A stretch of 63,161 bases of DNA, the filler included. It is 8 parts of 8 records of this genome, joined end to end, with 100 filler letters (N's around TTAATTAATTAA, not from the genome) between each part and the next. Parts side by side here need not be neighbours in the genome. Positions count along the whole stretch, not along the records: positions 29,102 to 44,311 come from SRR31156797_26279; 7 more parts are not named here. One strand, 5' to 3'. The position numbers and the translations under genes are program-made. The notes beneath the pieces are model-generated. The model made no database searches and was not told the origin of the DNA. It saw nothing but the letters and a program-made list of their open reading frames with translations. Below are positions 29,102 to 31,601 of this stretch, one piece after another. Numbering within the stretch: the stretch's first letter is position 1; each line of letters opens with the position of its first letter.

Positions 29102-29617
29102 GTGGCGGCTGTGATAGTGGCCCTTTATCTTGCACGAAAGCAGTCACGTAGTCGTCTTGAGGTTTTTGCTGACGTCAACCTCTATATTTCCTCTGAGGCG
29201 CAAAGGTCTTCGACACTAGATTTGAAGGCCGCGCCTAGCATTATAACTGTCACGATCAGGAATGTTGGGCAGGTGGCTGTGACCATACCCTATTGGAGTT
29301 CGTTTTTTTGGAGCGTTCCAGGAGGGAAAATAGCGGCTATGCAAAACCCACAGGAACCGGATTATCGCCGTGAGCCGATTGAACTTCTCCCGGGAAAATC
29401 TGCTTCAATCATTCTTACAGACGATCTATCGCTATATCAAAAAACGATAACGAATCTAGCAGAGAAATCGCGATTTGGTAAATGGGCTCAACGGTTTCCG
29501 AAACTGACCGTTAGGACCGAGATTGGAGATAGATTCCCTGCTAAAATTAGCAAGTCGTTGCGGAAACTCGCTCTGTCGGCAGAAGTTGCACCAAATAGTT
29601 CTAGCGCGGAAGGTTAA
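29102..29617 (+). CDS. Hypothetical membrane-anchored protein, 5' truncated
   Basis: Open from the contig start; hydrophobic VAAVIVALYLA followed by a beta-rich domain. Confidence 0.7.
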   Translation: MAAVIVALYLARKQSRSRLEVFADVNLYISSEAQRSSTLDLKAAPSIITVTIRNVGQVAVTIPYWSSFFWSVPGGKIAAMQNPQEPDYRREPIELLPGKSASIILTDDLSLYQKTITNLAEKSRFGKWAQRFPKLTVRTEIGDRFPAKISKSLRKLALSAEVAPNSSSAEG

Positions 29618-29627
29618 GGCTTCGGCT

Positions 29628-30377
29628 ATGCCAGTAGATCGTGCGCTTTGGAAGAGATTGTTGACCAAATATTATGCGCCGGCATGGCCTTGCCCGTTCT
29701 GTGCTGACGGCAAATTAAGGCTTAAGTGCGACACATTCCATTTTGAGGAAACAGCGGAGTCTCGGCGCCTACATAGCAACGAAAATTTCCATATTATGGA
29801 AACCACTTTCGTATTTTCAGCGCTGCTGGAGTGTTCTCGTTGCAACGAGAAAGTGTCGTGCTGTGGCGATGGTGGCTATGAACCGAATGAATACCAGGAC
29901 GAAAATGGCGAATATAGTTTAGATTATGATCCTATATTTTCGGCGAAATTTTTTTCGCGGCCAATGAAGATATTTGTGCCGCCAAATATATGCCCAAATA
30001 AAATAAAAAAGGCGCTTCATAAATCATTTTCAGTGCTGTTTTGCGACGTTGGAGCCGCAGCAAATCATGTTCGACAGTGTGCTGAAGAGATTCTAACCCA
30101 TGCGGGGATTGCTCTCCGGAACACACGTGGCCGATTTATGACATTAGAAACACGTATACGTTCATTCGAACAAGTGGATCACGAAAATGCTGGCCGCGTC
30201 AGTGCACTAAGATGGATTGGTAACTTTGGAAGCCACCCAGAAAATTTAACCACGGATAACGTATTTGATGCCTACGACATTCTCGAGGTGCTCCTTGAGG
30301 ATATGTACGTAGGGCACCATCGGTCCGTTAGAGAGTTGGTGGAGCGGATCAATCGGGAAAGGCAACCCCCACGTTGA
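29628..30377 (+). CDS. DUF4145 domain protein with N-terminal Cys motifs
   Basis: WPCPFC, CSRC, AAANHVRQCAEEIL and ALRWIGNFGSH (RxxGNxxxH). Start taken at ATG 29628. Confidence 0.85.
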   Translation: MPVDRALWKRLLTKYYAPAWPCPFCADGKLRLKCDTFHFEETAESRRLHSNENFHIMETTFVFSALLECSRCNEKVSCCGDGGYEPNEYQDENGEYSLDYDPIFSAKFFSRPMKIFVPPNICPNKIKKALHKSFSVLFCDVGAAANHVRQCAEEILTHAGIALRNTRGRFMTLETRIRSFEQVDHENAGRVSALRWIGNFGSHPENLTTDNVFDAYDILEVLLEDMYVGHHRSVRELVERINRERQPPR

Positions 30378-30428
30378 AGAAGATGCTTGCCTTTCGATGG
30401 GTGATGGCGAGGCTACGGTATTGAGGTC

Positions 30429-31601
30429 ATGGCATACGAAGGCCGCTATTGGCACCGCCTGGAAAATGGGCGAATTCAGTGTGATCTCTGCCCACGTTTC
30501 TGCAAACTGAGCGAGGGGCAGGCGGGCCTCTGTGCAAACCGGATTGCGACGGCGGACGGGATTGTCGTCATCAGCGATCACTTGTCATCTGGCTTCTGCA
30601 TTGATCCGATAGAGAAGAAGCCCCTGAACCACTTTTTACCGGGAACGCCGGTGCTAAGTTTTGGCACAATCGGCTGTAATCTTACGTGTCGTTTTTGCCA
30701 AAATTGGTCGATTTCCAAGCCCCAAAAACGTGCACACACAGTTTACGCACAGGCTTGGGAGGAAAAACGTAAGCAAGAACAACATGTTAGAACCTATACA
30801 AAAAGCCAGAACTGGGACATCAGCAAATCCCGCGAATTCGACCGCCTGACCGATAGGGCGTCGCCGGAGGCGATTGCCCGGGCCGCCGCCAAAACCGGTT
30901 GCCGCAGCGTTGCCTTTACCTACAACGATCCGGTCATTTTCCTCGAATACGCCGTCGACGTGGCGCAGGCCTGCCATGAACTCGGCATCAAGACGGTCGC
31001 CGTGACCGCCGGCTATATCTGTGCCGAGGCGCGGGCCGAGTTTTTCCGGCACATGGACGCTGCCAACGTCGATCTGAAGGCGTTCACCGAACGCTTCTAT
31101 GCCGATATTTGCACCGGCGGCCTGGCCGCTGTGTTGGATACGCTGAAATATCTCAAGCATGAAACCGACGTCTGGTTCGAACTGACCAATCTGATCATTC
31201 CCGGCGAAAACGATTCGGAAACCGAGCTTCATGAAATGACCGCCTGGGTTGCCGACAATCTGGGGCCGGACGTGCCGATGCATTTTTCCGCTTTCCACCC
31301 CGACTGGAAGATGCGGGACAAGCCCCGCACGCCGCCGGCCATCCTGGGACGGGCCTGCGAGATCGCCAAAGAAAACGGCCTGCGATACGCCTATGTCGGC
31401 AACGTCCACAATCCGGACGCCGACAGCACCTATTGCCATCAATGCGGAGACATGCTGATCGGTCGCGACTGGTATCAGCTTTCGACCTGGAACCTGTCCG
31501 ACGACGGTCGCTGCCTGTCCTGCGGCACGCCCTGTGCCGGCATCTTCGACGGACCACCAGGCAATTGGGGCCGCAAACGCGCCCCGGTTCGGATATCCTA
31601 A
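30429..31601 (+). CDS. amrS: AmmeMemoRadiSam system radical SAM enzyme, apparently chimeric, with a 36-codon duplication/insert
   Basis: QCDLCPRFC, DPIEKKPLNHFLPG, GCNLTCRFCQNW, AFTYNDP, NVDLKAF, HFSAFHPD and YVGNVH. Confidence 0.93.
   Translation: MAYEGRYWHRLENGRIQCDLCPRFCKLSEGQAGLCANRIATADGIVVISDHLSSGFCIDPIEKKPLNHFLPGTPVLSFGTIGCNLTCRFCQNWSISKPQKRAHTVYAQAWEEKRKQEQHVRTYTKSQNWDISKSREFDRLTDRASPEAIARAAAKTGCRSVAFTYNDPVIFLEYAVDVAQACHELGIKTVAVTAGYICAEARAEFFRHMDAANVDLKAFTERFYADICTGGLAAVLDTLKYLKHETDVWFELTNLIIPGENDSETELHEMTAWVADNLGPDVPMHFSAFHPDWKMRDKPRTPPAILGRACEIAKENGLRYAYVGNVHNPDADSTYCHQCGDMLIGRDWYQLSTWNLSDDGRCLSCGTPCAGIFDGPPGNWGRKRAPVRIS

Follow-up and report, generated by a model that had tools for sequence, protein, structure and literature searches.

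Why should a gene for AmrS, the radical SAM protein of the three-gene AmmeMemoRadiSam locus, carry one conserved motif twice? This question is raised by an open reading frame (ORF) at positions 30429..31601 on the plus strand of a 63,161-nucleotide stretch of DNA, which is referred to here, in its whole length, as the window. The window comprises eight unrelated contigs (GC contents of 36 to 60%) with N44-TTAATTAATTAA-N44 spacers between them at 6734-6833, 12133-12232, 20973-21072, 29002-29101, 44312-44411, 51355-51454, and 57267-57366; the genes on either side of a spacer are unrelated, and arguments from gene context are valid inside one contig only. The contig bearing amrS covers positions 29102-44311 (15.2 kb). 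A preliminary description of this DNA had proposed that the gene is an attachment (att) junction of an island that targets amrS. According to the analysis presented here, a site-specific genomic island has very probably integrated within amrS, and positions 29102-30811 represent its right end, on the attR side.

The ORF encodes a 390-amino-acid AmrS protein, which resembles the NCBIfam AmrS family TIGR04337 in its score (612.9 bits, with a cut-off of 220) and in its conserved cysteines but differs from it in that the match is split in two around a 36-residue repeat plus insert, the second stretch comprising residues 126-389 (profile positions 86-349). The protein runs through CRFC-QNWSISK (...GCNLTCRFCQNWSISK) into 29 residues (PQKRAHTVYAQAWEEKRKQEQHVRTYTKS) and then continues with QNWDISKSREFD. 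Exactly as described earlier, the QNWxISK motif occurs twice, QNWSISK at 30699 and QNWDISK at 30807, with the Q codons 108 nucleotides (nt) apart. The two copies are similar as protein only and not as DNA (caaaattggtcgatttccaag versus cagaactgggacatcagcaaa). We divide the gene, all of it on the plus strand, into an island-borne replacement 5' half (residues 1-97; 30429..30719), an in-frame linker of 29 codons (30720..30806), and a native host 3' part (residues 127-390 plus stop; 30807..31601). The attR core, GCCAGAA, at 30805..30811 is made up of the linker end and codons Q127 and N128. The 5' half holds the N-terminal cysteines C18, C21, C25, and C35, the CX3CX2C motif (C83, C87, and C90), and the first QNWSISK, so that the element supplies both the N-terminal Cys residues and the three iron-sulfur (Fe-S) cysteines, as had been suggested. 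These three cluster cysteines are invariant in 50 of 50 aligned sequences, 15 of them chimeric.

The composition of the gene changes with these parts. The earlier hand counts of codons with G or C in the third position (GC3) were exact: the 5' half has 59/97, the linker has 9/29, and the first 60 codons downstream of 30807 have 47/60, with 200/264 for the 3' part as a whole. In 200-nt intervals, the GC content is 0.42-0.50 over 29201-30400, 0.57 at 30401-30600, and 0.46 at 30601-30800; from 30801 on it is 0.53-0.67 and mostly at least 0.60. The step thus falls at the core. A low value in the last bin of the contig profile is an artefact, that bin overlapping a spacer.

The insert does not have the features of an intein or other self-splicing element: it is 29 residues long, and a Pfam search gave Radical_SAM above the cut-off and a subthreshold Epimerase match, with no Hint or homing-endonuclease domain. 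An AlphaFold2 model (predicted template modeling score, 0.83) is folded confidently for the most part; predicted local distance difference test (pLDDT) values below 50 are confined to residues 84-86 and 91-140, which take in the two motif copies as well as the linker. The modeled fold is compatible with a working enzyme, and the reading frame is open in all five genomic chimeric amrS genes, the one in the window included.

A composite gene of this kind could stem from the assembly of metagenome reads, with the amrS genes of two organisms being joined at a word common to both near the QNW codons. The window is made of metagenome-like contigs of very different GC contents, the switch lies in the most conserved stretch of amrS, and the sequencing run X1 holds other amrS genes. 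However, an assembly chimera would leave one motif and not two in-frame copies 87 nt apart. Moreover, the linker is homologous to those of other chimeric AmrS proteins and has an equally spaced repeat in all seven linkers counted, including those from complete or isolate genomes that show both junctions (see below). As to the misassembly near 30807 that the preliminary description had allowed for, a Logan contig from run X1, which may be the source data and would then be a second assembly and not second data, runs across the junction over 29102-33600 with 0 differences and reaches 317 nt beyond 29102. A contig of the same run from another organism skips 265 nt of the window with 157 nt between, which makes it 108 nt shorter, as expected of an amrS gene without repeat and linker. 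In run X2, which belongs to another study, cover begins at about 30900 and is thus limited to the host part; as absence of cover, the lack of the island part counts for nothing. We regard an assembly chimera as very improbable.

The two parts of the gene also have different nearest relatives, in line with the chimera proposed at the outset. The best database match, P0001 (355 amino acids, no insert), is 94% identical to the 3' part over 264 residues and 67% identical to the 5' part over the 87 residues before the first motif. Over the 120 listed matches, the median identities are 73% for the 3' part and 70% for the 5' part, and because these values are nearly equal, the 5' half is not merely the less conserved one. 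It is nearer to an island-borne 5' half from Paramagnetospirillum marisnigri SP-1 (74%) than to the orphan host halves described below (63-67%). Ordinary relatives lack the insert, as the proposal implied.

Phylogenetic trees were calculated for each part from the window, database proteins, and four genomic genes, with ordinary rows thinned to 60 (named neighbours plus 45 random ones); P0121, P0122, and P0127 (chimeric, with truncated N termini; length filter) and the near-copies P0040, P0052, P0053, and P0055 were left out. In the tree of the 3' parts, which has 75 rows, 10 changes of the chimeric label are required, of which starred branches force at least 6, and the window is sister to the ordinary protein P0001 with a starred support of 99. 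Holding all 15 chimeric 3' parts as one clade lowered the log likelihood (lnL) by 459 and was rejected by the approximately unbiased (AU) test (p-AU, 0.0016). The tree of the 5' halves, built from 79 rows and 88 columns, is poorly resolved and requires 3 changes of the label. The chimeric halves fall into a group of 11 rows (Shimodaira-Hasegawa-like approximate likelihood ratio test [SH-aLRT] support, 94), a group of the genomes G001, G611, and G717 (starred support of 100), and the window, which stands by itself on a branch of 2.07. The orphan halves are placed among ordinary rows. Here, one clade of chimeric halves was not rejected, the held tree being 32 lnL units better (p-AU, 0.845). A single pure clade of island 5' halves in a FastTree analysis (support, 0.63) was not upheld by this more careful tree. 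Island-borne 5' halves thus form at least three groups, possibly of one origin, which is kept open by the AU test only. Both trees agree with the attachment of a mobile 5' half to the 3' halves of many hosts.

These results also bear on the idea that the protein is a native, vertically inherited AmrS variant that arose by a short tandem duplication and an insertion and owes nothing to a mobile element. An open frame with its conserved residues kept and an insert placed in a region modeled as floppy by AlphaFold2 would agree with such an origin. It would account neither for the GC3 step at the second motif nor for identities of 67% versus 94% to the same relative, and chimeric 3' parts that are scattered among ordinary ones, with one clade rejected, argue against it, as do the orphan native halves and integrases in genomes with this gene architecture. 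A native variant is accordingly given hardly any weight.

If an island has entered amrS, the severed host 5' half should lie at its far end, and P. marisnigri SP-1 (G001) has both junctions in one genome. Downstream of the chimeric amrS gene of this isolate (L004, 9953-11200) are the host genes that also come after the gene in the window. An orphan 5' half lies 24 kb upstream on the same strand as a 108-amino-acid open frame; found as the third match in a search with ordinary AmrS, it is 80% identical to residues 8-105 of P0006 and ends ...ACCTGCAAGTTCTGCCAGAA, followed by foreign sequence and a stop codon. Directly adjoining the orphan half is a 570-amino-acid tyrosine integrase, P0231 (PF00589, 34 bits; phrog_1), which otherwise gives distant matches to Xer-type models, far below their cut-offs. 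Beyond the orphan half there is a divergent gene for a Memo+AMMECR1 fusion (amrBA). The GC content is 0.42-0.61 inside the island and 0.63-0.74 outside, with 0.63-0.72 downstream of amrS.

The cargo of the SP-1 island (L004 3800-9900 and L086 1325-9947) includes MmeI-type restriction-modification, Schlafen/AlbA_2, DEAD-helicase, T5orf172, and HEPN/Toprim genes, together with GTP cyclohydrolase I, PTPS-family, and radical-SAM genes, which we read as 7-deazaguanine synthesis, a D12 methyltransferase gene, and two large ORFs (474 and 499 amino acids) without a family. Taken as a whole, we read this cargo as a defence island.

The same build recurs in other genomes. Among 401 Rhodospirillales genomes sampled, an amrS 5' half was found in 342, with two matches in 13. 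Four of these (G001, G611, G717, and G559) have the chimeric build, the orphan half and the chimeric gene lying on a common contig and strand. In G001, G611, and G717, the orphan host 5' half lies 17-27 kb upstream of the chimeric gene and ends ...TGCCAGAA. G611 and G717 have the layout of SP-1, with islands of about 17 and 27 kb and other cargo, and integrases 98% identical to P0231 (98-100% among the three genomes), which we take as a sign of recent spread across three species. Of the remaining genomes with two matches, G584, G621, and G676 have decayed 5'-half scraps (see below), G424, G434, G508, and G731 have amrS pieces at contig ends, and G482 and G790 have second copies elsewhere. In a class-wide sample, seven other genomes of 401 encode homologues of the integrase with about 30% identity; no amrS piece lies within 1.5 kb on either side of these, and they probably use other targets.

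In G559, the arrangement (L132, 2873-6000) amounts to a mini-island: an orphan half ending in CQNW plus foreign sequence is followed by 1.6 kb at 40-44% GC and then by the chimeric amrS, whose 5' half is identical to that of the database protein P0123. Between the junctions lie two ORFs (167 and 248 amino acids) without a Pfam family, and the 248-amino-acid ORF is not alike to the window protein at the equivalent spot, which carries a DUF4145 domain (see below).

Thus, of the elements whose presence had been predicted, an integrase and an orphan native 5' half are found in the relatives G001, G611, and G717 and not on the window contig, which starts 1.7 kb from the junction; the pairing of the orphan half with amrBA holds in G001, the only genome checked there; and doubled-motif genes are on islands bordered by integrases in G001, G611, and G717 but not in G559. 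The predicted end of the orphan half, ...TGCCAGAAC, was nearly right, the relatives ending ...TTCTGCCAGAA.

The relatives allow the point of exchange to be placed. In SP-1, attL reads ...TTCTGCCAGAA up to the switch and AATCCTGGCAG after it, and attR reads ...GATAGCCAGAA and then CTGGGATATC; GCCAGAA comprises the only bases common to attL and attR at the switch, in agreement with G611 and G717. The window junction is AAAAAGCCAGAACTGGGAC, with the core at 30805-30811, and coincides with the GC3 step. In G559, the switch occurs three bases further on, after CAAAACTGG.

Homologous recombination through flanking amrS sequence could likewise insert or spread a foreign block that has no integrase of its own. 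No integrase is present in the window, and the amrS-like segment of the island could act as a homology arm. However, the two motif copies share no DNA identity, the 5' half has about 66-67% DNA identity to host halves, which makes it a poor substrate, and in relatives, the switch falls on a 7-bp core that has an integrase and repeated sites beside it. We consider this route very improbable.

A feature that the preliminary description had not foreseen is a repeat resembling an integrase arm site within the 29-codon insert. The inserts of chimeric AmrS proteins are homologous to each other, and in all seven linkers counted by eye (window, G001, P0004, P0019, P0028, P0123, and P0183), the spacing from the peptide (H/Y/C)TV(Y/H)(A/T)Q to the residue preceding the second QN(W/H) is exactly 17 codons. 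In the window, this corresponds to the repeat ACACAGTTTACGCACAG at 30736..30752 on the plus strand, two RCACAG units about 11 nt apart that are read as TVYAQ and make a candidate arm-type integrase site. In the regions of G001, G611, and G717, which are 23-38 kb long, the pattern NCACAG-N5-6-NCACA[GA] was matched three times each, always in the same orientation: once within the linker and twice in the interval from the attL core to the start of the integrase gene. In G559 and in the window contig (15.2 kb), there was one match each, in the linker. Shuffled sequences lead one to expect 0.06-0.34 matches per sequence (0.1 for the window contig). Every match to the RCACAG pair in these sequences adjoins a core. 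The HTVYAQ linker peptide is thus the in-frame reading of a DNA repeat, and because such pairs are found only beside att cores, this repeat is probably an arm site of the integrase, with the linker as a putative P arm of attP.

In light of this, the following series of events is probable. A tyrosine integrase, known from the relatives and presumed for the window, would recombine the 7-bp GCCAGAA of attP with the same bases in the host, at the codons Cys-Gln-Asn (TGC CAG AAC) that follow the radical-SAM CX3CX2C motif. Integration would sever the host 5' half, leaving it as an orphan beside the integrase and amrBA at the far end of the island, and the near end would supply an island-encoded amrS 5' half of 97 codons, which has all seven conserved cysteines and a QNWSISK of its own, as well as the linker and the core, so that island and host parts together rebuild one 390-amino-acid AmrS. 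Since the element would keep a complete 5' half and place arm DNA between that half and the core, the doubling of QNWxISK would be explained. The rebuilt amrS would be transcribed from the island and uncoupled from amrBA. A promoter scan 5' of 30429 gave nothing convincing. The cargo is variable, with defence genes in the P. marisnigri copy. An empty site would be expected to read TTCTGCCAGAACTGG preceded by a host-type 5' half, and for SP-1, the excised circle and the restored attB should have the joints ...GATAGCCAGAAAATCCTGGCAG... and ...TTCTGCCAGAACTGGGA....

A wider proposal builds on this scheme: the linker would be dual-coded, as a P arm with the RCACAG repeat and as a translated surface loop after the Fe-S cysteines, and a lineage of elements would use the CQNW site of amrS as a portable landing pad across the Rhodospirillales, and perhaps beyond, taking over AmrS expression and parting AmrS from AmrA and AmrB. 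We see the chances for and against this wider proposal as evenly balanced.

Support for the att junction of an amrS-targeting island comes from the descent of the two halves, from the junctions of the relatives, and from the trees, all within the limit that the window shows attR only because the contig begins at 29102. Several points weigh against this reading. With one junction, the mobility of this copy is not demonstrated. Searches of the whole window by tblastn (E of 0.01 or less) gave no Memo, AMMECR1, second amrS piece, or P0231-like integrase, so that integrase, orphan half, and amrBA are absent from the contig and from the rest of the window; the lack of amrA and amrB on the contig had been observed correctly in the preliminary description. 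The 5' half sits on its branch of 2.07 with no resolved kin, and the nonrejection of one clade may partly be due to long-branch attraction. The island DNA of the window has no close relative; its identity to other islands, 74-81%, is confined to some 120 nt within the 5' half. A scan with the 5' half plus linker found 0 of 80 listed metagenome loci to be chimeric and, by tblastn, nothing related in phages, and the integrase query gave two distant matches only in viral contigs. Run X1 is perhaps the source of the window, so its contig carries the weight of a repeated assembly. The low pLDDT at 91-140 leaves the model silent on which QNW copy serves and on enzyme activity, and an interaction between the integrase and the RCACAG repeats is putative, as are excision and the promoter. 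Finally, no P0231-like integrase lies between the G559 junctions, and therefore such junctions can persist as dead relics.

This last point leads to the possibility that the junction did arise by integration and that the copy in the window is now a fixed relic, its integrase lost or decaying, the element immobile, and the island 5' half nothing but a plain front end of the gene. In G559, orphan half and chimeric amrS are 1.6 kb apart, with two ORFs without family and no such integrase between them; three further genomes (G584, G621, and G676) retain only decayed 5'-half scraps upstream of amrS; the 5' half in the window is unusually diverged; and its contig is without an integrase. However, the contig starts only 1.7 kb from the junction, so that the far end is out of sight; the window linker keeps an intact RCACAG pair with the 17-codon spacing to the core seen in G001-type elements; and the 98% identity of G001-type integrases in three species makes them look recently active. 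We consider a relic unlikely, if well within the range of what may have happened.

The scraps are also of interest in themselves. In G584 (L133), G621 (L135), and G676 (L134), 5'-half scraps with stop codons lie 0.7-1.3 kb 5' of an amrS gene that has a normal length, a single motif (QNY), and no linker, and the gap to the scrap is low in GC. The G584 scrap ends ...TGTAAATTCTGT, followed by TAGAA, at the same place as the att core. The scraps may be relics of a linker-less family of elements or of decayed islands.

Upstream of the junction, the contig carries the low-GC cargo that had been noted before. This block is truncated by the contig start. An ORF of 171 amino acids (29102..29617, plus strand; GC3, 73/171) has no Pfam, NCBIfam, or PHROGs family and is probably cut at its 5' end, since its first base is the contig start. 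It is followed by a gene (29628..30377, plus strand; GC3, 110/249) for a 249-amino-acid DUF4145 protein (PF13643, 43.2 bits), which also matches phrog_1305, a "DNA binding protein" (E value, 7.8e-21). We assign both to the cargo of the island. The genes 3' of amrS are of high GC content and are assigned to the host; they comprise, on the plus strand, a gene for an LPG_synthase_TM-family membrane protein (31670-32671; PF03706, 147.7 bits) and an M17 aminopeptidase-like ORF (32721-34352). The order amrS, LPG_synthase_TM, M17 is common to the window, G001, G611, and G559 (tblastn, 40-62% identity; Pfam on the L004 genes).

As to how widespread chimeric AmrS proteins are, a search of AmrS homologues for the doubled motif, as had been suggested, found it with an insert of 30-100 amino acids in 17 of 230 AmrS proteins from two database searches; one of the 17 is labelled by its source as coming from a Magnetovibrio isolate. 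In a scan of species representatives, 80 loci were kept of at least 600, and five of these seemed to extend over the linker. SP-1 (L004) is the only chimeric one among the 80, the other four (L025, L034, L062, and L072) being ordinary amrS genes with gapped alignments. In plasmids, a tblastn search with the 5' half plus linker gave seven records, the linker being covered in none; the one record inspected, H1, has an ordinary amrS with a single motif. On the Methylocystis rosea plasmid NZ_CP044329.1 (L001, 11872-12933), amrS is missing from the plasmid gene table, probably because it has been classed as a pseudogene. Its frame seems to be broken near the 3' end (a 353-amino-acid frame ending in unrelated sequence), and it stands head to head with another radical SAM gene.

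Among 120 short AmrS-like proteins listed, 11 turn, by eye, to unrelated sequence right after CQK (6) or CQN/CQNW (5). P0340, P0280, P0281, P0284, and P0289 are amrS 5' halves that run into unrelated sequence after CQN(W). One such orphan ending in CQNW (P0340, on a 437-kb contig) is labelled Geodermatophilus, an actinobacterium, and the same amrS site may be used outside the Alphaproteobacteria. A further short protein, P0277, is a 114-amino-acid AmrS fragment with 66 member sequences that ends ...QNWDLSLIHISEPTRRS. This tail resembles a translated sequencing adaptor, as would result from untrimmed reads in public assemblies.

Islands that enter a coding gene and make good the damage are known. 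SXT/R391 in prfC and phage 21 and e14 in icd enter a coding gene and bring along a replacement for one of its ends, which keeps the target functional. Their targets differ from amrS, and in icd it is the other gene end that is replaced. We know of no in-frame arm-site linker or duplicated motif described for these elements. The closest parallel is provided by the dusA-specific genomic islands and prophages with DusA-associated integrases (Farrugia et al. 2015, PMC4482086), for which that paper states the principle that is seen for amrS in the relatives. The amrS islands differ from the dusA islands in their target, in the length of the replaced part (97 codons, with the catalytic Fe-S cysteines), and in having a translated linker that separates the 5' half of the element from the core and a conserved motif that is duplicated. 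The relatives' integrase P0231 matches generic models only.

The repair principle is therefore known for other genes, and amrS as a target was not found in print, supplements and island databases being outside the scope of the literature search. PMC12724379, considered as a prior report of this target, merely places a prophage next to such a gene in the part used here, and the TIGER/Islander announcement (PMC12424338) names no targets in the corresponding part; large island databases may hold such amrS islands undescribed.

In summary, the island adds amrS to the short list of protein-coding genes that serve as specific, self-repairing island landing sites, and the element must rebuild 97 codons with all iron-sulfur ligands, which greatly exceeds the short ends replaced by dusA islands. 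The doubled motif together with the translated arm-site linker offers a simple signature for recognizing such islands and their exact borders in draft genomes and metagenomes, and it accounts for "AmrS with insert" proteins and for stray 100-amino-acid "hypothetical" AmrS fragments in databases. Since its 7-bp core lies in a coding stretch that is highly conserved, the integrase could be developed into a tool for site-specific insertion in many bacteria. Within the AmmeMemoRadiSam locus, amrA and amrB do not adjoin amrS in the window, and in SP-1 they lie 24 kb off, beyond the orphan half; the island parts AmrS from AmrA and AmrB and probably drives amrS from its own promoter. Because of this separation, the role of the AmmeMemoRadiSam system, which is still unknown, could be approached through natural experiments, by comparing strains that carry the island with strains that lack it.

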